From Candidatus Peregrinibacteria bacterium (GTDB taxonomy: Bacteria > Patescibacteriota > Gracilibacteria > UBA1369 > LOWO2-01-FULL-3), in assembly GCA_026395515.1 (NCBI GenBank), contig JAPLYN010000006.1:12844-76843 (forward strand): DNA of 64,000 bases, written 5' to 3'. The notes beneath the pieces were generated by a model. It was not told the origin of the DNA and did no database searches. It saw only the letters and a list, made by a program, of their open reading frames with translations. Of the stretch, positions 32,605 through 59,175 are shown one piece after another (within the stretch, counting starts at the first letter, position 1; each line of letters begins with the position of its first letter). Made by a program: the position numbers and the translations under genes.

Positions 32605-33990
32605 TTATTTAACAGGTTCAAACTCCACTTCCTTACCTACCTTTTTTCCAACAATCTTTCCGTTCTTATAAACTAATTCTCCGTTCACAAATGTCATAAT
32701 CGGACAGCCTTTGAAAGTGCTGCCAGCATACGGTGACCACTTACATTTTGTAAACAATTTTTCATTTTTTACTTCAAACATTTTTTCCATATCCACCACC
32801 ACTAAGTCCGCATCAAATCCAGCCTCAACTTGTCCTTTATTCTTCATACCAAAAATTTTCGCCGGACTTTCACAACACAATTTCACCACTTCTTTCATCT
32901 CCAATCCTCCATCATTTACAGCATTCAATAAAATCGGCAACAAAGTATCAAGCTCCGGAATTCCAGATGGAACATCCATATATTCCTGCTCTTTCTCTAC
33001 CAAAGTATGAGGCGCATGATCAGTCGCAATAATATGAACTTCCCCAAATTTCAAAGCCTTCCACATCGTAAACAAATCCATCTTACTTCTCACCGGTGGA
33101 TTCACCTTTATCAAATTTCCAAAAGTCGCGTAATCATCATCAGAAAGCAATAAATGATGCGGCGCCACTTCACAAGTAATGCGTGGCTGACCAGCTTCAT
33201 CCAAATTCTGATATTCCAATAACATCGTTAATTCCTGATCGCTAGACACATGAGCAACATGCAATCTCTTACCATTCTCTTTCGCCAATTCACAAAGAAA
33301 TTTCACCGCACTTACCGCACAATCAGCAGATCTTATTTTTGAATGAACAGACGGATCAATCACCGCTTCTTTCGGCACAATAAGTTTTCCATCATCATCA
33401 ATTCTTGCACCATATTCCGCCAAATATTCTAAAGCTTTTTCTTTAATCATTCCTTCATCCTCTGCATGAGCCACAATAAACTTATTACACTTCTTAAAAA
33501 GCTCGGCAATAGTCTCAGTTCCCACACCCATATTTCCTGTCGAATTAGCCACATAAACTTTCACCGCAGGAATATTTTCAGCCTTATTTATTTCGCTAAT
33601 ATTCTTGCCGTCAAAACCCATGTACAAGCCATAATTACAATATGCTTTCTTCGCCACTAATTTTCTTTTTTCTTCCAAATCTTTCACCGTCAAAATCGGC
33701 GGAACATTATTTGGCATGTCACAAATAGTCGTCACACCTCCAGCCACTGCGGCTTTAGTTCCAGTAGTCCAATCTTCTTTATATTTCTGGCCCGGCTCGC
33801 GCAAATGCACATGCACATCAATAAGCCCAGGCAAAATAATTTTTCCCTTACAATCTATAGTCTCATCCACTTCATGTTTCTGTCCCCAATCAAAAGTATT
33901 CACAATTTTTCCATCTTCAATAAGAACGTCAGCATCGTACACGCCTAGCGCGCATCCGACCTGCCCATTTTTTAGAAGAATTTTTGTCAT
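32605..33990 (-). CDS. pyrC: Dihydroorotase
   Basis: ..LPGLIDVHVHLREPG... amidohydrolase metal motif, 461 aa, between pyrB and pyrD. Confidence 0.9.
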   Translation of the reverse strand: MTKILLKNGQVGCALGVYDADVLIEDGKIVNTFDWGQKHEVDETIDCKGKIILPGLIDVHVHLREPGQKYKEDWTTGTKAAVAGGVTTICDMPNNVPPILTVKDLEEKRKLVAKKAYCNYGLYMGFDGKNISEINKAENIPAVKVYVANSTGNMGVGTETIAELFKKCNKFIVAHAEDEGMIKEKALEYLAEYGARIDDDGKLIVPKEAVIDPSVHSKIRSADCAVSAVKFLCELAKENGKRLHVAHVSSDQELTMLLEYQNLDEAGQPRITCEVAPHHLLLSDDDYATFGNLIKVNPPVRSKMDLFTMWKALKFGEVHIIATDHAPHTLVEKEQEYMDVPSGIPELDTLLPILLNAVNDGGLEMKEVVKLCCESPAKIFGMKNKGQVEAGFDADLVVVDMEKMFEVKNEKLFTKCKWSPYAGSTFKGCPIMTFVNGELVYKNGKIVGKKVGKEVEFEPVK

Positions 33991-33992
33991 AA

Positions 33993-34910
33993 TTAACCTT
34001 TAATCACTTTTTTCAAAAGCGCCATCCTAATCGCCACACCATTTCCCACCTGATGAAAATATCTCGCTCTTGGATCTGCATCCACTTCAACCGCTATATC
34101 TTCCACTCTTGGCAAAGGCTGCAATACAATCGCATGTTTCTTAGCTTTCTTCATAAGAGCAGCATCCACCACAAACACTCCAACAAATTTCTTATATTCC
34201 CTATCGCTCACAAATCTTTCTTTTTGAATTCTGCTAACGCTAATCACATCCACTTCTTTCACCATCTCTTCTGGAGTCGCCACTACTTTCGCGCTCGCTC
34301 CCATCTCCTTAAAAATCTCACTCGGCATCTCCAATCCTTTAGGAGAAACCAAGACGAATTTTACTTTAAAGTGTTTCAACAAACCAAATTGTGAATGTTG
34401 TACTCGGCTATTTTTCAAATCTCCAATCATTCCAATAGTAAGTCCATCAATCTTTCCGAATTCCTTCCAAATCGTATAGAGATCAAGCAAAGCCTGAGTC
34501 GGATGTTCATTCGAACCATCTCCAGCATTTATCACGGGCACGTCACTATACTTAGCGAGAATCGCCACAGAGCCAGGTTCCGGATGTCTCATTGCAATCA
34601 CATTCGCAATCTGTGAAACCACTTTTCCAGTATCTTCCAAGGTTTCCAATTTTCTCACTGAAGAAGTCTGCATCATGTCTGCATTGCTTACCACTCTTCC
34701 TCCAAGTCTTAACATCGCCGCTTCAAAACTAAATCTCGTTCTAGTCGAAGGCTCATAAAAAAGTGTCGCCATAATTTTTCCTTCCATCTCTTTTCCAAAC
34801 TTTCCACTCTTCACCAATTTCTCCATTTTTTTGGCTTCAGCAAACAAACTTAGCAATCCTTCCTTATCGAATTGCTGAGTAGACAAGATGTTTTGGCCTT
34901 TGAATTTCAT
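33993..34910 (-). CDS. pyrB: Aspartate carbamoyltransferase catalytic subunit
   Basis: ..FYEPSTRTRFSFE...HPTQALLD... Confidence 0.94.
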   Translation of the reverse strand: MKFKGQNILSTQQFDKEGLLSLFAEAKKMEKLVKSGKFGKEMEGKIMATLFYEPSTRTRFSFEAAMLRLGGRVVSNADMMQTSSVRKLETLEDTGKVVSQIANVIAMRHPEPGSVAILAKYSDVPVINAGDGSNEHPTQALLDLYTIWKEFGKIDGLTIGMIGDLKNSRVQHSQFGLLKHFKVKFVLVSPKGLEMPSEIFKEMGASAKVVATPEEMVKEVDVISVSRIQKERFVSDREYKKFVGVFVVDAALMKKAKKHAIVLQPLPRVEDIAVEVDADPRARYFHQVGNGVAIRMALLKKVIKG

Positions 34911-34976
34911 ACTTTCTTTTTAATCCTAAACACTTTAAAATAAAAAAGCGAATCTGTAAAGCTAACCAAAATAAAC

Positions 34977-35411
34977 ATGGAAATCAAAAACATCGACGAC
35001 CTCATGACCCAGCTCGGGAACTTTTTAAACACTTACTACTATTATGCGGTAGCAGCTGGAGTAATCATTACGATTATTATCGTTGTGATCGCCCTCAAAA
35101 TTCGTCTAAAAATTATTAACAAAGGCAAAGGAAAATCCGATTCTTCATCTGATGCCGGCAGTATGATTATGTCTCTTCTCATCGGCAGCAATCCGGAAAT
35201 TCTCAATCAAATGGTCGACGAAAAAGCTAAGCATAAAGAAAAAATCATCGAAGAAATTAAAAGATTCAGCAAAATCAAAGACTTCAAAAAAATAAATGAC
35301 AGCACTGCAGAAATTACAGTAGAAATCGACGGCGAAGAACACTGGTACCGCGCAAAAACCACAGCCGATGGACACAAACCAAAGATTCTTTCCCTAAGTA
35401 AAATTAAATAG
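34977..35411 (+). CDS. Small membrane-anchored hypothetical protein, 144 aa
   Basis: Single hydrophobic segment (YYYAVAAGVIITIIIVVIALKI). Divergent from pyrB. Confidence 0.55.
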   Translation: MEIKNIDDLMTQLGNFLNTYYYYAVAAGVIITIIIVVIALKIRLKIINKGKGKSDSSSDAGSMIMSLLIGSNPEILNQMVDEKAKHKEKIIEEIKRFSKIKDFKKINDSTAEITVEIDGEEHWYRAKTTADGHKPKILSLSKIK

Positions 35412-35420
35412 ACCAGAAGC

Positions 35421-35449
35421 TTGCATTCCCTAATAATTTAAGCTAAAAA
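35421..35449 (+). promoter_or_regulatory. Possible promoter upstream of carA
   Basis: TTGCAT (35421-35426), a 17-nt spacer, then TAAAAA (35444-35449). Confidence 0.35.
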
Positions 35450-35469
35450 TAAGTAAATTCAATTTCAGC

Positions 35470-36540
35470 ATGTCAAAAGCCACACTTATCCTTAAAGACG
35501 GCACTCGCCTCACTGGCGAAAGCTTCGGAGCAGACGTCGCGTCTGCGGGAGAGGTTGTTTTCAATACTGGTATGATGGGCTACCCAGAGAGCTTTTCTGA
35601 TCCTTCCTACACAGGACAGATCATGGTTCTTACCTATCCGCTTATTGGAAATTATGGAGTTGGTGCCGACAGCAAAGACAAAGACGGCGTAGAAAAAAGA
35701 TTTGAAAGTGGAAAAATTCACATCAAAGGACTTATCGTTAGCGAATATTCTGAAAACTACAGCCACTGGGATGCAAAAAAATCTCTCAGCACTTGGCTTA
35801 AAGAAAATAATATTCCAGCAATCACTGGAATAGACACTCGCGCTCTTACTCAAAAAATCCGTCAGACCGGTACTATTCTAGGAAAAATTGTTCCGGAAAA
35901 AGCTACTGACACTGAATTCTACAATCCCGACCTCGACAATCTAGTTGATCAAGTTTCTATCAAGAAACCTAAAGTTTACGAGAAAGGAAAAAAGAGAATC
36001 ATCTGCGTAGATTGCGGTATGAAAAACAACATTCTTCGCAATTTTCTCGATCGCGATGTCACTGTCGTGAGAGTTCCTTGGAATTATGACTTCATTGCTG
36101 CCGGCGAAAAGTTCGACGGAATTTTCTTGTCTAATGGTCCGGGCGATCCTTCTATGCTCACAGAACTTCACGCTATTGTCCGCAAAGCTATTGCTCTCAA
36201 AAAACCAATTTTTGGAATCTGTCTCGGCTGCCAAATTATGGCTCTCGCGACTGGCGCCAAGACTTATAAATTAAAATTCGGTCACCGTTCTCAGAATCAG
36301 CCATGTATAGACGTTGATACTGAACGCTGCTATATCACAAGCCAAAATCACGGCTTCGCTGTTGATGAAAAAACTCTTAAACCAGGCTGGCAAGTTTGGC
36401 TTCGCAATGCCAATGACCAGACAGTAGAAGGAATCAAGCACAAGACACTTCCCTTCTTCTCTTGCCAATTCCACCCTGAAGCAACTCCAGGTCCTACAGA
36501 CACAACAAAATTCTTCGATCAATTCGTAGACCTGTTATAA
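35470..36540 (+). CDS. carA: Carbamoyl-phosphate synthase small (glutaminase) subunit
   Basis: ..VFNTGMMGYPES.SDPSY.GQI....PLIGNYG...; GATase triad context (GICLGCQ, QFHPE). Confidence 0.94.
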   Translation: MSKATLILKDGTRLTGESFGADVASAGEVVFNTGMMGYPESFSDPSYTGQIMVLTYPLIGNYGVGADSKDKDGVEKRFESGKIHIKGLIVSEYSENYSHWDAKKSLSTWLKENNIPAITGIDTRALTQKIRQTGTILGKIVPEKATDTEFYNPDLDNLVDQVSIKKPKVYEKGKKRIICVDCGMKNNILRNFLDRDVTVVRVPWNYDFIAAGEKFDGIFLSNGPGDPSMLTELHAIVRKAIALKKPIFGICLGCQIMALATGAKTYKLKFGHRSQNQPCIDVDTERCYITSQNHGFAVDEKTLKPGWQVWLRNANDQTVEGIKHKTLPFFSCQFHPEATPGPTDTTKFFDQFVDLL

Positions 36541-36556
36541 AAAAATTACCCCAGAT

Positions 36557-36935
36557 ACCAAAAACCCACTGACGAATCAATGGGAAAGTTTTAGACAGCA
36601 AAGACGTTTTGTTTTACTGGGAGCTTTTATTTTTGTTTTATAATCCGGCCAAGGTTTAGTGTTGTTTTCAGCCGCACCACCGGCCGCCTGGGCTCTTCAT
36701 AGACTAAGTATCAATGACGATGACTTGCTAGAAGCAGGACGGTACTCAGAACTGTCTGAGCAGCTTCGGCTGTCTACCTAGGGCAGAGAACCATTCCTTA
36801 GCGAGGAAGGCAGAGCGAACGATATTTTTCATTCACTCCAGCTCTCATCGCTATGAGAGATTTTTTGTTTTTGTTTCGAGATCTTGAGTGTTAATGAGCG
36901 GTGCTTTTCTAGGGCATTTGATTTCTTTTGAAATC
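36557..36935 (-). ncRNA. Candidate ~380-nt structured ncRNA, copy 1 (family unknown)
   Basis: Minus-strand TTGACA (36968-36963), a 16-nt spacer, TATAGT (36946-36941). A 5' hairpin GATTTC-AAAA-GAAATC spans 36935-36920. The terminator hairpin at 36584-36565 has a UUCG loop and is followed by UUUUUGGU. There is no conserved ORF. Confidence 0.45.
36842..36872 (+). terminator. Plus-strand intrinsic terminator inside repeat copy 1
   Basis: CTCTCAT-CGCT-ATGAGAG followed by ATTTTTTGTTTTTG. It would end a carA transcript that carries a ~330-nt 3' UTR. Confidence 0.5.
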
Positions 36936-37141
36936 ACATCACTATAGCAGGTATGAGTTTATTGTCAAAAAACTATAGTGGACGAATAGCGTAAAGTATT
37001 GTAAAGCAACATTCCCTAAAGATATGCAAATCTTCCCCTTTTCATACTTCCCCACACTCTCCAAAACTTCTCAAGTCCTATCTTTTGACTTTTACACTCA
37101 AAAAAAATATCTTCAACCTCCTAAAATAACTTTTTGAACAC

Positions 37142-39262
37142 ATGGCAGAATCAGAATTAGCAGTACAAGAAGAAAAAATTATAGACCCTCTTGCAGGTGA
37201 AGAACTTTCACAAGAAGACATTGATAAAGAAGTTCAATCAAGAATAGATGCCATTGAATTTGCCACAAAAGAAGAAATAATAGCCGCTTTAAGATCAAGT
37301 AATCCAACAGCAACTAGATATTTAGCCGCATTTTCAAAAAAAGATTTGCCTAGACTTACCAAAGCCGAAGTAGCCGATCTCGCCAAAGAATCTCCAAATA
37401 CAGCTGCGTCTGCACAAATTAAAAACTTAAACGTATCAGCTAGATTCATACGTCATCGTCTAAAAATAGAATCAGAAGTAACTGAAGGAAACAACAACGT
37501 AGTAAACCGTGTTCTATGCAATACCAGAATCAGGATTACAGGACAATCCGTTCCCCCATTCGTAGTTGAACTCCATCAAGCAGTAAGAGAAAAAATTCCG
37601 ACTCAAAATTCCAAAAAAGCAGAATTACTAGAACTAATTATCGATCAATATTTAGGAATTCCATTAGTAAATCTATCTGCCTATTTAGATCTTGAACCTG
37701 CCGACATATCAGCAGCAATTGAATCAATCAACGAAGAACTAAAATCTTCAAAAGTAAAAATTCATATTCGTAATGGAGTAGCAGTCATCGGAGATACAAA
37801 CGGATATATAACTCTATTCGACAACGCCGAAACTAGAAAAAATCTTTTCCCAAAGAAAAAAGAAGAAGCTCAGACAGAAACTGCAGATGCAAAAGCAACA
37901 AGACTAGAATCCGAATTAGGCGCAGCCTTAGCAGCATTAGCAGCAGAAAAGGAAAAGACTACCGCTGCCGAAACAACAATAGCAGAACTCACACGAAAAC
38001 TTTCAGAAGCAGAAGACATGGCCCTAGAAGCAGATGAAAAAGCTGGACAAGCCGAATCTAAAGCCACAAATCTCGAAGCAGAAAAACAAACTCTTACAGC
38101 ACAAGTATCAAAACTAGAATTAGATATTCAAGAATCTTTAAGAATATCCGCAGAAACAGCACAAGGAAGCGGATTAGAAGAGTTGAGAAAAGGAAAAGAA
38201 AAAGTGGAAGCAGAAGTAAAAAGACTAGAAGCAAAATTAGAAGCAAAAACGGCTGAACTTACTACCTCAAGAGAAGAATCCAGAACAGCACGTGAAGAAG
38301 CCCGTGTAGCAAAATCAGTTGAATCAACTCTAAGAAAACAATTAGAGGCAGCAAAAAAACAAGCCGCCGATGCTGAAGAAGCAAGAGGTGCAGCTATGAG
38401 AAAAGCAGGTAGAGGTGGAGTAGATGTTGATTCTGCAAAAGATAAAGCAACCATCCAAGATCTACAGGAAACAATAAGAAGAGGAGAAGAACAAAATAGA
38501 TCATTAAGAATCCAACTTCAAAGACAGAATGGATTAGCAACCATCCACCCTGAAGAATTAGCGAGACTAAAAAGAAACTCCACGGAATTAAATGGAGCAT
38601 CAGAAACAATCAGAAATCTACAAAGACAACTAGAAGCAAAAGAATCCCCTGCCCAACCTGAACAAAAAGACTCATCAGAACTAATTCAATTAAGAGCAAA
38701 ATTGGCAGAAAAAGATGCAGCTCTAATCAAAGCTCAACAAGATCTAGCTCAATCAACACAACAATTCACAGTTTTAACTAACGAACTTCGCGAAACTACC
38801 GAACTTCTAGAATCAGCAACTAGTTCAACCCCAGCCGCAAAAGGCCCTGAACCAAAAGTCACTGCAGTCGCTGCACCAGCTAAAACTCCGATTCCTACGC
38901 CAAAAAATCCTACAGTCGTCATACCAGCTCAAGCGCCAAAACCTAAACCTGCTCCAATTGAAGACCCCATCGAACAAATTAAAAAAAATGACTTCAGCAA
39001 TAGTGAAGCATTAATAAATACAGTCAATAAAGCCCTCACTCTAAACGCCGGAACCAATCAACACGGATTACCAAAGGCAAAATTAAGAGACATCCGCAAC
39101 GCCTTAACAAACCTACAATTTGGAAAAGATTCTTGGCTACACGATACCAGAGTAAAAATTGTAAAGGCGCTTAATGACATGAAAGAAAAAGGAAATGGCG
39201 ATCACATTCCAGTGGAAGCAGTTGAAGCATGCATAAGAACCATAGACGTATTACCTAAATAA
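37142..39262 (+). CDS. Coiled-coil protein, 706 aa (N-terminal globular part, long Ala/Glu/Lys-rich heptad region, Pro-rich linker, C-terminal domain)
   Basis: Long ATG ORF. The central ~300 aa are A/E/K/L/T-rich, as in coiled coils. No enzymatic motif recognised. Confidence 0.75.
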   Translation: MAESELAVQEEKIIDPLAGEELSQEDIDKEVQSRIDAIEFATKEEIIAALRSSNPTATRYLAAFSKKDLPRLTKAEVADLAKESPNTAASAQIKNLNVSARFIRHRLKIESEVTEGNNNVVNRVLCNTRIRITGQSVPPFVVELHQAVREKIPTQNSKKAELLELIIDQYLGIPLVNLSAYLDLEPADISAAIESINEELKSSKVKIHIRNGVAVIGDTNGYITLFDNAETRKNLFPKKKEEAQTETADAKATRLESELGAALAALAAEKEKTTAAETTIAELTRKLSEAEDMALEADEKAGQAESKATNLEAEKQTLTAQVSKLELDIQESLRISAETAQGSGLEELRKGKEKVEAEVKRLEAKLEAKTAELTTSREESRTAREEARVAKSVESTLRKQLEAAKKQAADAEEARGAAMRKAGRGGVDVDSAKDKATIQDLQETIRRGEEQNRSLRIQLQRQNGLATIHPEELARLKRNSTELNGASETIRNLQRQLEAKESPAQPEQKDSSELIQLRAKLAEKDAALIKAQQDLAQSTQQFTVLTNELRETTELLESATSSTPAAKGPEPKVTAVAAPAKTPIPTPKNPTVVIPAQAPKPKPAPIEDPIEQIKKNDFSNSEALINTVNKALTLNAGTNQHGLPKAKLRDIRNALTNLQFGKDSWLHDTRVKIVKALNDMKEKGNGDHIPVEAVEACIRTIDVLPK

Positions 39263-39756
39263 AAACTCCCCCACATACCAAAAACCCACCGACGAATCGA
39301 TGGGAAAGTTTTAATCAGTAAGAAATTTTTGTTTTTACTGGGAGCTTTTATTTTTGTTTTTACATCCAGCCAAGGTTTAGTGTTGTTTTCAGCCGCACCA
39401 CCGGCCGTCTGGGCTCTTCTAGACGAAATGTCAATGAAGACGAATTGCTAGAAGCAGAACGGTGCTCAGAACTGTCTGAGCTGCTTCGGCTGTCTACCTA
39501 GGGCAGAGAACCATCCCTTAGCGGGGACAGAAGAGCGAACGATATTTTTCATTCACTCCATCTCTCGTCGCTAAGACAAGATTTTTTTGTTTTTGTTTTG
39601 AACTTTCTTGAGTGTTAATGAGCAACTTTGCTTTTCTAGGGCATTGATTTCTTCTTGTTGAAATCACATCACTATAGCAGGACTGAGTTTATTGTCAAAA
39701 TTCTGTTCTAGACACATGCCTAATAATATTGCGAAACAATTTTTCCTAAAGATATT
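39263..39756. repeat. Direct repeat copy 2 (~494 bp, non-coding)
   Basis: Colinear with 36541-37025. It begins at the first base after the stop of the coiled-coil gene. Confidence 0.9.
39277..39665 (-). ncRNA. Candidate ~390-nt structured ncRNA, copy 2
   Basis: Minus-strand TTGACA (39698-39693), a 16-nt spacer, TATAGT (39676-39671). The 5' hairpin GATTTC/GAAATC (39665-39646) has an 8-nt loop. The terminator hairpin spans 39304-39285, followed by a U-run. Confidence 0.45.
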
Positions 39757-39810
39757 CACCCTTGTAATAAATCGCCAAAATTGCTAACTATTAAATATAA
39801 ATATATTCGC

Positions 39811-42132
39811 ATGTTCGTCTCTCTCGACTTAGAAACCACAGGTTTTGACCCAAATATTGATAAGATTATTGAGTTTGGTGCAGTAAAATTTGATTTAACA
39901 GGAGAAAAAGAAACTCTGAAATTTTTCGTAAACCCAGGAGTTACCCTACCAAAAATCATCACTCATATTACAAACATCAAGGATTCTGACCTAAAAGACG
40001 CTCCCCCATTCGAAGACAAAAGAGCTGAAGTACAAGCCTTTATTGGCAACCTGCCAATCATTGGTCACAACATAAAATTCGATCTCGCATTTTTGGAAGC
40101 GAACAAAATTGAAATTAAAAACCCAAGCTACGATACTCAAGAACTTAGCGGAATTCTTTTACCAAACATGCCTTCTTACAGTTTGGAAATTCTCAGCGAA
40201 AAGTTAAATCTTACGCATTGCGAAAAGCATCGTGCTCTCGATGATTCCATCGCAGCTATGGAACTTTTTCTAAAATTAATTAAAGAATTTGAAAACCTTG
40301 AACCAGAACTTTTAGAGCAAATGAAAGCTCTCACTCAAAAGTCTAATTGGCCGCTAAAGAATCTTATTTCCAGCATTTCCAGCAAACCAAATCCCGAAGC
40401 TAAAGTTACAAAAAAAGAACCGAAAGAATTCACACCATCAGCAAATTCTCTCAAAATACTCGAGCACACTGAGTCTGCACTTTTCGAATTAATTCCACCA
40501 TACGACAATTTAATTAAAACTCTTTGCGAGAAAGCAGATGGCGATACTTGCATCGTAGTTCCCTATCAAACTTTCAGAAAAATAAATAGCGAAATATCTC
40601 ATGAAGTAAGCAAAGTAGACGTTGCAAAAAGCTATGTATCTTTGAAAAGACTAAAGAGATTTAGCGAAAAAGAATTCTTCGAAAATTACGAAATCAGCGC
40701 ACTTTTAAAATATTTAAACTGGAGCAAACAAACAAAAACCGGACTACTCAGCGAAGTCGCACTCTTCCACGATGAAAGAGCTACCATTCTTAAAGTAAAT
40801 ATCGACGAAAACATTACCAACCCTGAAGAAGAAATGTTCTTCAAAAAAGCGCTTGAAAAAGGCCAAAACAAAGCATCTCTCTACACCAATCAAGCACTTA
40901 TAGAAAACCCGCCGGAAAATAAAAGATTAATTCTCATCGACTTTGATAATTTTTTAAATTCACTACATTTTCACGCTTCAACTTATATAAAGCTTGAACC
41001 AGCAATTGATATTCTAAAAACTTTGGAAGAATATTTCCCAAGCGACCTCACTGTCACCACCTTGATCACCAAGACTACTATCCTCTTTGGTCTCCTTGGC
41101 ATTATTTTTGAAAGACACAACGATCAGAGTATTTACGGAGCAAAAAGCACAATTAATACAGATATTTTCCAAACAAAAGAATGGATAGATGCAGTGAATA
41201 GCTTAAACAACGTCATCGAAATTTCCCAAGAATTAGTAAATGTAAAAAATGAAGAAACAGCCGGCTCCCTCAAACAATGGAAAACATTTTTAAAGAATTT
41301 ATACAGCATTCTTTCTAAGCCAGATTTAGCAAACAACATGGTTTGGTTAGAAAAAGATCCACAATCAAATATAGTAATACGTAAAGCTCCTTTTTCTCTT
41401 AAAGAAGACCTGAAAAACATATTTGGCAAAGCAAAAAATTACCAAATTATTGATGAATGCGTGACTATTAATGACGACGGAAATTTCATCAAATCTCTAG
41501 GAAATTTAGATTCAAAATTACCAATCTACGATCTCAATCCGAAAGACGAAAAGATCGAAATTTATATTACAAAAGATACTGACGGTAGCGATCTAAACAA
41601 GATTCCGCGATTCATTGAAAAATACTACAAAGAAAAATCTCAAAACATTGTGATGCTTTTCAGCGCAAAAAAAGATCTAGAAGTCACCACCCTACAATTA
41701 AGCAAAGAAAATGTTCCAGTTCTTCCCCAATTAGCTGGATCCTTAGGCAAAATCCAAGAACGATACATTAGTGAAAAGAAATCACTTATGCCGCCAGTTC
41801 TTCTAGTTACTTCTCACATTTGGGAAAATTTCGAACCAAATCAAGACATCGACACCCTCATCATTTACAAAATTCCTTTCGATCCACCAAGTGATCCAAA
41901 AATTATTTCTCTTAGTCGAAATTACGCCAATGCCTTTATGGAATTACAAGTTCCCCTAGCCGTAAAATCTACAAAGAAAATTATCAATCGCCTAAAGAGC
42001 AGTCACGCAAATCTCAAAAAAGTAATCATTTTTGACATTCGTTTAACAAACAAAAAATACGCTGACGTATTCTTGGAAAATTTAAACTTAATGGCACCAA
42101 CAAGCGTCGTAAAACTCCACACTCTCCTATAA
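39811..42132 (+). CDS. DnaQ-like 3'-5' exonuclease fused to a DinG-family helicase-like region with degenerate ATPase motifs
   Basis: The ATG at 39811 gives MFVSLDLETTGFDP.. (ExoI), HNIKFDLAFL (ExoII) and HRALDDSIA (ExoIII). The C-terminal ..LIIYKIPFDPPSDP.. is DinG-like. I found no GxGK[ST] Walker A, and DFDN occupies the DEAH position. Confidence 0.7.
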   Translation: MFVSLDLETTGFDPNIDKIIEFGAVKFDLTGEKETLKFFVNPGVTLPKIITHITNIKDSDLKDAPPFEDKRAEVQAFIGNLPIIGHNIKFDLAFLEANKIEIKNPSYDTQELSGILLPNMPSYSLEILSEKLNLTHCEKHRALDDSIAAMELFLKLIKEFENLEPELLEQMKALTQKSNWPLKNLISSISSKPNPEAKVTKKEPKEFTPSANSLKILEHTESALFELIPPYDNLIKTLCEKADGDTCIVVPYQTFRKINSEISHEVSKVDVAKSYVSLKRLKRFSEKEFFENYEISALLKYLNWSKQTKTGLLSEVALFHDERATILKVNIDENITNPEEEMFFKKALEKGQNKASLYTNQALIENPPENKRLILIDFDNFLNSLHFHASTYIKLEPAIDILKTLEEYFPSDLTVTTLITKTTILFGLLGIIFERHNDQSIYGAKSTINTDIFQTKEWIDAVNSLNNVIEISQELVNVKNEETAGSLKQWKTFLKNLYSILSKPDLANNMVWLEKDPQSNIVIRKAPFSLKEDLKNIFGKAKNYQIIDECVTINDDGNFIKSLGNLDSKLPIYDLNPKDEKIEIYITKDTDGSDLNKIPRFIEKYYKEKSQNIVMLFSAKKDLEVTTLQLSKENVPVLPQLAGSLGKIQERYISEKKSLMPPVLLVTSHIWENFEPNQDIDTLIIYKIPFDPPSDPKIISLSRNYANAFMELQVPLAVKSTKKIINRLKSSHANLKKVIIFDIRLTNKKYADVFLENLNLMAPTSVVKLHTLL

Positions 42133-59098: not shown

Positions 59099-59175
59099 GC
59101 GCTCGTAGCTCAGATGGATAGAGCATCAGCTTGCGGAGCTGGGGGTCACAGGTTCGACTCCTGTCGGGCGCACCA
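59099..59175 (+). tRNA. tRNA-Arg, anticodon GCG, CCA encoded
   Basis: Hand-folded cloverleaf: acceptor GCGCTCG/CGGGCGC, D arm GCTC/GAGC, anticodon stem TCAGC/GCTGG with loop TT-GCG-GA, variable loop GGGTC, T arm ACAGG-TTCGACT-CCTGT, discriminator A, then CCA. Confidence 0.88.

Follow-up and report, generated by a model that had tools for sequence, protein, structure and literature searches.

Why does a reduced genome keep two diverged copies of the same non-coding DNA on either side of one gene? The question is raised by a locus of a Candidatus Peregrinibacteria bacterium (contig JAPLYN010000006.1, assembly GCA_026395515.1), of which a stretch of 64,000 nt was analyzed, here called the window. 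Within it, two direct repeats of ~490 bp, R1 and R2, bracket a gene for a coiled-coil protein, the order being carA, R1, the coiled-coil gene, R2, and a DnaQ-exonuclease/DinG-helicase-like gene (DinG-like gene in the following). Each repeat is very probably a paralogous copy of a gene for a structured non-coding RNA (ncRNA) on the minus strand.

Peregrinibacteria belong to the Candidate Phyla Radiation (CPR) and have genomes of ~1 Mb, in which nearly every conserved element is indispensable. The CPR, or Patescibacteria, account for a large share of bacterial diversity, and we know of almost nothing on their ncRNAs. In the literature that we searched, CPR ncRNAs included, no ncRNA is described for Peregrinibacteria. 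Homologous loci in relatives are denoted by L numbers, and the RNA units of copies 1 and 2 are called U1 and U2.

The repeat pair is a genuine duplication

An initial annotation had described R1 and R2 as a diverged direct duplication of non-coding DNA, and this holds. Pairwise alignment, which it had proposed as a check, gave an end-to-end match: in blastn, positions 36541-37028 align with 39261-39758 at 85% identity over ~500 columns (E = 3e-154). A MAFFT alignment agrees, with substitutions and small indels lying between long stretches of identity, and a repeat search returned four collinear segments leading from R1 to R2 at an offset of 2720-2730 bp. The seven blocks listed as identical each occur once per copy (7/7 exact), and the divergence between the copies is 13-15%. 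Both starting points were placed correctly: the first base of copy 1 is the one after the carA TAA (36538-36540), and that of copy 2 is the one after the TAA of the coiled-coil gene (39260-39262). A similarity of the last codons of carA and the coiled-coil gene, which could have extended the repeat into the coding sequences, was dismissed as chance; it is unseen in the coiled-coil genes of L002 and L028.

Neither copy contains an open reading frame (ORF) of more than 60 aa, as had been stated, the largest being 40-49 aa. The GC-rich segments pointed out in both copies are present as local peaks, with 40-nt segments reaching a G+C content of 0.63-0.65, above the 99th percentile of the window (0.60), but the overall content is barely raised (0.41 in R1 and 0.40 in R2 vs 0.384 in the window). 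The proposed copy count was run for the window, where blastn and nhmmer (E ≤ 10) found the two copies and no third in 64 kb.

The two-copy layout is present again in L009 (metagenome-assembled genome (MAG) ZH-bin-154). L007 (GCA_018061845.1) reaches from carA through R1 into the beginning of the coiled-coil gene. On either side of this gene, a Logan contig from SRR20698644 is broken within conserved blocks.

Each copy carries a predicted transcription unit on the minus strand

An autonomous minus-strand gene in each copy is strongly supported. A consensus scan of this strand found a promoter in both copies, with 11 of 12 matches to the sigma-70 consensus and the TG extension. About 375 nt downstream of it, both copies have a G+C-rich terminator hairpin of 8 bp followed by UUUUUGG. 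Family alignments show the promoter and the terminator to be conserved in at least 21 homologs, and the terminator stem covaries, from U-A to C-G between the two copies and also across the family. Two of the blocks noted initially, GAAATCACATCACTATAGCAGG and TGAGTTTATTGTCAAAA, are indeed identical between the copies, but on the correct strand they are the -10 and -35 boxes. Upstream of the promoter, the duplicated region extends beyond what the wider family keeps, which is only the ~20 nt adjoining the -35 box. Coordinates are given in Table 1.

The strand can also be read from the consensus base pairs of the RNA. In the minus-strand reading, 159 cells are G-U and 36 are A-C, and because of this asymmetry we fix the minus strand as the functional one.

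Sigma-70 polymerase would start ~7 nt past the extended -10 box (TTGACA-16-TGcTATAGT) and head away from the downstream plus-strand gene. Transcription would end at the intrinsic terminator, which adjoins the convergent gene at its stop codon, and one hairpin probably serves both genes. In copy 1, the carA stop lies 24 nt from the terminator, which probably acts bidirectionally and closes carA too. Family-wide, the upstream gene is convergent and packed tightly against the terminator region. Thus, the start of each repeat right after a stop codon is true as a position, but it only reflects the terminator region abutting the convergent upstream gene in compact genomes.

The RNA has a conserved fold with covarying helices

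A conserved multi-helix fold is strongly supported. The exact transcripts have minimum free energy (MFE) z scores of -4.38 (copy 1) and -4.16 (copy 2) relative to shuffles. Covariation was tested on a curated structure of 79 pairs in 21 sequences, with slid partners and 500 shuffles as controls; 20 sequences gave a similar outcome. Standard pairs are formed in 91.5% of the cells, vs 36-46% in the slid controls, and 46 of the 79 pairs have double changes, vs 12-26. The covariation score is 0.425, vs ~0.11 for slid partners, and not one of the 500 shuffles equaled the observed value on any measure. Independently, RNAalifold predicted 69 pairs, 35 of them with compensatory changes. Pairs of the A-tracts with the terminator U-tract, proposed by ribosum RNAalifold, were judged spurious and dropped from the curated structure. 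Copy 1 forms all 75 of the family-consensus pairs and copy 2 forms 71; of its four misses, two stem from a shifted register of the MAFFT alignment in P1.

In the alignment, the conserved -35 and -10 boxes are followed by invariant blocks that alternate with hairpins, whose stems change yet stay complementary and whose loops tolerate insertions of up to ~60 nt across the family. The invariant blocks are GCCCUAGAAAAGC, AAACAAAAACAAAA, GAUGG, CCGAAG, GUCCUGCC, and CAGGCGGCCGGUGGUGCGGCUGAAAACAACACUAAACCUUGGC. From 5′ to 3′, the fold shown by covariation starts with hairpin P1, an A/C-rich linker, and the long irregular hairpin P2 (21 bp). A junction with the hairpins P3, P4, P5, and P6 comes next, and after another A/C-rich linker, the RNA ends with hairpin P7 and the terminator. 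The A/C-rich tracts have equivalents in copy 2 at 39598-39585 and 39360-39345.

The most conserved core is invariant or nearly so in the 21 sequences. It holds hairpin P6 with an invariant GUGGUG loop, and the stem of P6 changes from C-G to U-A in three sequences and from G-U to A-U in one. Tentatively, GGUG of this loop may form a pseudoknot with a downstream CACU; 96% of the cells pair, and the changes are one-sided. A long-range closing helix between the 3′ strand of the core and GCCCUAG at 36915-36909 is likewise tentative, and the GCCCUAG block is absent from L023, L026, L031, and L033.

Homologs and synteny in relatives

By its carA homologs, the organism is a member of the Peregrinibacteria/Peribacteria. 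Relatives were selected in two ways. Loci were picked by carA similarity alone, at 99% to 74% identity, and every locus with DNA was examined. In all eight (L002, L003, L005, L007, L033, L034, L035, and L036), nhmmer found the RNA unit, with one homolog each on the strand opposite carA. Inspection of relatives had also been proposed initially, and they have one copy, at the position of R2. Pattern scans for the invariant core contributed 13 loci of GTDB species representatives as well as 12 metagenome contigs, which where labeled are nearly all Peribacteria or Peregrinibacteria. The RNA family is specific to Peregrinibacteria/Peribacteria, with homologs in ~25 of their genomes and metagenome contigs. 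An outlying label belongs to L016 (CAYYAN010000257.1), a 2.4-kb contig with a Peribacteria-type coiled-coil gene and the RNA gene in a MAG labeled Chthoniobacter sp., which is probably mis-binned.

With tblastn of the window neighbors, the basic layout of nearly all members was found to be carA, the RNA gene on the opposite strand, and the DinG-like gene. The RNA gene is all that lies between carA and the DinG-like gene in L008, L015, L025, L026, L031, and L020. In L021 and L023, the unit adjoins grpE-hrcA, with neither a DinG-like nor a coiled-coil gene. Hence, the RNA unit is not tied in cis to carA or the DinG-like gene.

Two observations concern individual members. The gene table of the JGI contig P0107 has a 619-nt gap between carA and the DinG-like gene. 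In the MAG CAYHSM, the contigs L010 (3460-3812) and L014 (6576-6719) end inside the unit, and their profile coverage overlaps by ~54 positions; a single RNA gene interrupted where the assembly broke seems likelier than two copies.

R2 is the ancestral copy

A neighbor-joining (NJ) tree of the units places a U1 clade (window R1, L009b, and L007) as sister to a U2 clade (window R2, L009a, and L016), with the single-copy units of L002 and L022 outside both. Orthologs are 96-98% identical and paralogs 87%. In position, U2 is orthologous to the single copy of L002, L028, L003, L005, and others. L002 and L028 have carA, the coiled-coil gene, one RNA gene, and the DinG-like gene, and their short spacer between carA and the coiled-coil gene is homologous to window positions 37050-37135. 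Because of this layout and the spacer homology, we regard R2 as the ancestral copy. Compared with L002 and L028, R1 is a clean insertion of ~490 bp that separates the carA stop from the promoter region of the coiled-coil gene. The capture of this gene by a duplication, as suggested initially, is therefore not the best reading, since the gene already stands beside a single RNA gene in L002 and L028.

The ancestral order is carA, the RNA gene on the opposite strand, and the DinG-like gene. In the ancestor of the clade of the window, L009, and L007, the RNA gene and ~60 nt upstream of it were duplicated, and the new copy, R1, came to lie behind the carA stop and ahead of the promoter of the pre-existing coiled-coil cargo gene. 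That the duplication is old and that both paralogs are maintained under purifying selection is strongly supported. Substitutions between U1 and U2 are depleted in columns conserved in the family (5.5% vs 15.3%), and three pairs differ by full compensation.

Some units are mosaics of the two paralogs. In L016 (2010-2418), the diagnostic positions follow a block pattern 2...2 / 1...1 / 2...2, and L007 (2470-2914) combines a 5′ hairpin of the U2 type with a body of the U1 type, which suggests gene conversion between the paralogs or chimeric assembly. A related arrangement may exist elsewhere: in all five Candidatus Peribacter riflensis genomes, one direct repeat is reported to bracket ~3 kb (PMC4736985). 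This could be the same duplication of the RNA gene around cargo in a distant genus.

Alternative explanations

The initial annotation had proposed a cis-acting module (promoter, leader, or untranslated region) reused before the coiled-coil and DinG-like genes, and each copy does lie in front of a plus-strand gene. A terminator-like hairpin with a T-run on the plus strand (36842-36859) would also fit, but it is the only one on that strand and merely complements the invariant A-tract and the base of P2. The plus strand of R1 folds no better than shuffles (z = -1.2), and the strand asymmetry, promoter, and terminator described above place the function on the opposite strand, with transcription away from the downstream gene. 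The coiled-coil gene has a promoter region outside the repeat, and L002 and L028 retain it with no repeat in front; in L021 and L023, the unit stands beside grpE-hrcA with neither supposed target. We therefore reject the plus-strand reading, whose chance is very slim. Conservation for a small protein must be held most improbable. An ATG-initiated minus-strand ORF of 28 aa (MKNIVRS...), with GGAG ahead of it, is present in both window copies, L009, L007, and L016. However, it is restricted to that clade: in all other members, it is missing or replaced by unrelated ORFs, with insertions of 12-60 nt inside, and no ORF is conserved family-wide in the members examined. The six nucleotide differences between U1 and U2 in this ORF cause five amino acid changes, none being synonymous, and its nucleotides are those of the covarying helix P2. 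The small-protein reading was rejected on account of its clade-specific occurrence and the non-synonymous changes. Public hypothetical ORF calls inside the RNA gene, L007 2724-2867 (minus strand, 47 aa) and L001 2438-2632 (minus strand, 64 aa), are probably spurious.

As to the origin of the pair, an attachment site (att)-type duplication by site-specific integration of a coiled-coil cassette into the RNA gene is quite unlikely. Lineage-varying cargo has its hotspot in the interval from carA to where the RNA gene has its 3′ end, the bracket in the five Peribacteria genomes (PMC4736985) is similar, and the mosaics of L016 and L007 suggest recombination between copies. Against this, there is no integrase or recombinase in or beside the bracketed segment, and no phage, plasmid, or viral match. 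Both copies are full-length with promoter and upstream DNA, whereas a typical att duplication is a 3′ fragment only, and recent integration would leave near-identical repeats rather than copies of the divergence found here. L002, L028, and L033 have coiled-coil cargo with a single RNA gene. Mobile elements were rejected as well, in line with the initial annotation, which had seen neither an insertion sequence (IS), nor a miniature inverted-repeat transposable element (MITE), nor a CRISPR element: terminal inverted repeats and a transposase nearby are lacking, each relative has one syntenic copy, and matches to phages or plasmids (blastn, distant mode) or viral contigs (pattern scan) are absent. 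Representation of one locus twice by the assembly has next to no probability. Short-read assemblies do break at the element (L001, L012, and L016 end inside it), but the copies carry paralog-specific substitutions, which recur in independent assemblies (L009a is 98% identical to U2, and L009b and L007 are 96% and 92% identical to U1, respectively), and the unique flanks carA, coiled-coil gene, and DinG-like gene are contiguous in the window and in L009. Because of the 13-15% divergence and the layout in L009, L007, and the SRR20698644 contig, an artefact is excluded.

Several points weigh against a structured RNA gene in each repeat. The transcript is predicted from sequence, as are its ends and abundance, and the function of the RNA is entirely inferred. 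The MAFFT alignments are imperfect in the variable loops. Members from the pattern scans were picked by the invariant core, which inflates its conservation; the carA-selected loci carry the core too. The long-range helix and the pseudoknot rest on invariant positions or one-sided changes. Canonical RNase P RNA, transfer-messenger RNA (tmRNA), signal recognition particle (SRP) RNA, and 6S RNA elsewhere in these genomes cannot be shown from the loci scanned. Finally, gene conversion may exaggerate the sisterhood of U1 and U2, and the duplication may be older than the tree suggests.

Comparison with known RNA families

The 4227 covariance models of Rfam 15 were used at their gathering thresholds and at E ≤ 10. 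At gathering, the whole window gave only tRNA elsewhere, and at E ≤ 10, the region, single 400-nt units, and seven homolog loci gave noise only. The kind of gene, a stable structured bacterial ncRNA, is known; the family appears to be new, with no match in Rfam 15.

A highly diverged housekeeping RNA missed by Rfam (RNase P RNA, tmRNA, SRP RNA, or 6S RNA) is very unlikely. The length of ~380 nt, strong promoter, terminator, single copy per genome, and lineage-wide conservation resemble rnpB or ssrA. RNase P RNAs of the CPR are known to fall below Rfam thresholds, and in 10 of 35 circular CPR genomes, they were reportedly found only at lowered thresholds (PMC8172020). The loop UGGU could in principle pair with the 3′-ACCA end of tRNA. 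However, the RNase P, tmRNA, SRP, and 6S models are unlisted at E ≤ 10 in single-unit scans of 400 nt that do show matches of 10-12 bits. ARAGORN found no tmRNA in the window, and a tRNA-like 3′ domain is absent from the RNA. At the 5′ end, there is no P1 helix with the 3′ end but a local hairpin, the loop of which takes variable insertions, and the P4 pair GGAAAGUCC / ACAGAAnCCGGCUUA of the conserved regions I and V (CR-I and CR-V) is absent. A vague block at the 5′ end, GCCCUAGAAAAGC, is all that resembles CR-I, and it is missing in four members (L023, L026, L031, and L033). A diverged RNase P RNA was therefore rejected, given that covariance-model similarity, P1 end pairing, and the P4 core blocks are lacking. 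The RNA is like bacterial RNase P RNA, diverged CPR forms included (PMC8172020), in length, promoter and terminator, single copy, and lineage-wide presence, and unlike it in these features and in the dispensable CR-I-like block.

With the large orphan bacterial ncRNAs OLE, ROOL, GOLLD, raiA, and HEARO (Breaker/Weinberg-type motifs in Rfam), the present RNA shares a size of several hundred nucleotides, independent transcription, discovery by comparative genomics, invariant junction nucleotides that alternate with covarying helices, and loop insertions of variable length. It differs from them in the lack of an Rfam 15 match in sequence or structure, the confinement to one CPR lineage, the fixed site between carA and the DinG-like gene, and three A/C-rich tracts. 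The exposed A-rich, AANAANAA-like tracts between hairpins, the strong promoter, and the intrinsic terminator recall the Hfq sponges CrcZ and CrcY and the sponges CsrB and RsmZ. CrcZ-like Rfam matches do recur on A-rich tracts of several members, but they reach 10-20 bits vs a gathering threshold of 95, which is no homology, and the RNA has three tracts only and a much more elaborate fold. A stable housekeeping-type gene with a consensus promoter and lineage synteny is also known for 6S and Ms1 RNA; unlike 6S RNA, the present one has no long rod with a central bubble resembling an open promoter, is about twice the size, and has no Rfam match. Like tRNA and tmRNA genes that anchor islands, it has lineage-varying cargo beyond its 3′ end, with a direct repeat around the cargo in one clade. 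Unlike them, it has no integrase, both copies are full-length and diverged, and most genomes with cargo have no second copy. The RNA does not fit a riboswitch or cis-leader, as the sequence downstream on the same strand is the antisense of carA or the cargo, and the RNA ends at a terminator against the convergent stop.

Possible function and significance

We infer that the RNA acts in trans as a stable RNA. The invariant junction nucleotides, the GUGGUG hairpin, and the three exposed AANAANAA-type tracts would then be protein-binding or catalytic elements. The favored option, at clearly less than even odds, is a trans-acting scaffold of a ribonucleoprotein (RNP) or a protein sponge. Other options that may apply are a ribozyme, an RNA that binds tRNA ends (UGGU vs ACCA), or other roles.

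Large, intricately folded bacterial RNAs have repeatedly proved to be ribozymes or RNP cores. A bolder and on balance improbable proposal is a previously unrecognized class of large structured RNA, found in all Peregrinibacteria and perhaps essential to them, with a biochemical role of its own and two specialized isoforms in one clade. Such a class would be a new ribozyme or RNP core or a lineage-specific replacement of a canonical RNP machine, with the pseudoknotted GUGGUG hairpin as the active or binding center.

With ~380 nt, very strong covariation, a consensus promoter, and a fixed locus, the RNA lends itself well to structural and biochemical study and to listing as a new Rfam family. 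Recognizing its gene improves annotation, where spurious ORFs are called, and the finishing of MAGs, in which assemblies break at the duplicated copies. The paralog pair around fast-evolving cargo, together with the variable interval, is a small and tractable case of genome plasticity in reduced genomes.

Features of the locus, cargo, and flanking genes

Table 1 Positions of the RNA genes, their elements, and the surrounding genes. Positions refer to the window unless a locus is named
Feature	Position	Strand	Description
RNA gene copy 1 (paralog U1)	36558..36935	-	Predicted transcript of ~378 nt, start near G36935 (+/-2), 3′ end in U-tract
Promoter copy 1	36941..36968	-	-35 TTGACA 36968-36963, 16-nt spacer, extended -10 TGcTATAGT 36949-36941
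Upstream region duplicated with copy 1	36969..37028	-	~77% identical to 39699-39758
Intrinsic terminator copy 1	36558..36584	-	8-bp stem 36584-36565 (CCCATTGA/TCAGTGGG), U-tract 36564-36558
RNA gene copy 2 (paralog U2, ancestral position)	39278..39665	-	Predicted transcript of ~388 nt
Promoter copy 2	39671..39698	-	-35 TTGACA 39698-39693, extended -10 TGcTATAGT 39679-39671; boxes as in copy 1
Intrinsic terminator copy 2	39278..39304	-	Stem 39304-39285, U-tract 39284-39278; abuts stop codon of coiled-coil gene
Most conserved core, copy 1	36648..36690	-	CAGG-CGGCCG-GUGGUG-CGGCUG-AAAACAACACUAAACCUUGGC; equivalent in copy 2 at 39369-39411
A/C-rich tract AAACAAAAACAAAA	36863..36876	-	Predicted single-stranded; kept in 21/21 sequences apart from a few single substitutions
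A/C-rich tract AAAACAAAAAUAAAAG	36639-36624	-	Predicted unpaired
A/C-rich tract AAAACAAAA	P7 loop	-	Predicted unpaired
carA	35470..36540	+	Carbamoyl-phosphate synthase small subunit; Pfam CPSase_sm_chain and GATase; convergent with RNA copy 1; left synteny anchor
Coiled-coil gene, bracketed cargo	37142..39262	+	706 aa; own promoter-like site 37085-37113; outside the RNA gene
DnaQ-exonuclease/DinG-helicase-like gene	39781..42132	+	Pfam RNase_T and Helicase_C_2; divergent from RNA copy 2; right anchor
Hotspot intervals	36541-39262 (window); L002 3229-5430; L003 11069-14420; L005 11069-14515; L033 11072-12964		Also in L018, L019, and L014

The cargo hotspot spans the DNA from the carA stop to the 3′ end of the RNA gene, and its contents differ by lineage: coiled-coil proteins, a NADase_transloc/SLH protein with a 496-aa protein, seven small ORFs, or nothing. 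The hotspot intervals showed no integrase. The coiled-coil protein of the window gave only generic coiled-coil noise against Pfam, PHROGs, and PDB. It is 72-76% identical to its orthologs in L009 and L007, where carA is 99% and the DinG-like protein 96% identical; the coiled-coil gene is fast-evolving or being exchanged. Its promoter region is homologous to the spacer between carA and the coiled-coil gene in L002 and L028.

The DinG-like ORF is called from TTG 39781, and ATG 39812 gives MFVSLDLETTG just ahead of exonuclease motif I. The true start is probably ATG 39812. In L005 (15319-17597) and also in L006, the gene is present as two ORFs, one with RNase_T (194 aa) and one with the helicase (568 aa); a frameshift, decay to a pseudogene, or a true split could account for this.

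Elsewhere in the window, a tRNA-Arg gene (anticodon GCG) at 59099-59175 on the plus strand is the sole Rfam and ARAGORN match in the 64 kb. Upstream of the repeats, a conserved pyrimidine-biosynthesis cluster (32605-36540) comprises genes for a dihydroorotase-like amidohydrolase and a pyrB-like carbamoyltransferase, a small ORF, and carA. In relatives, pyrD, a pyrK-like gene, pyrE, and pyrF follow, and this pyrimidine synteny is held at carA identities of 72-99%.

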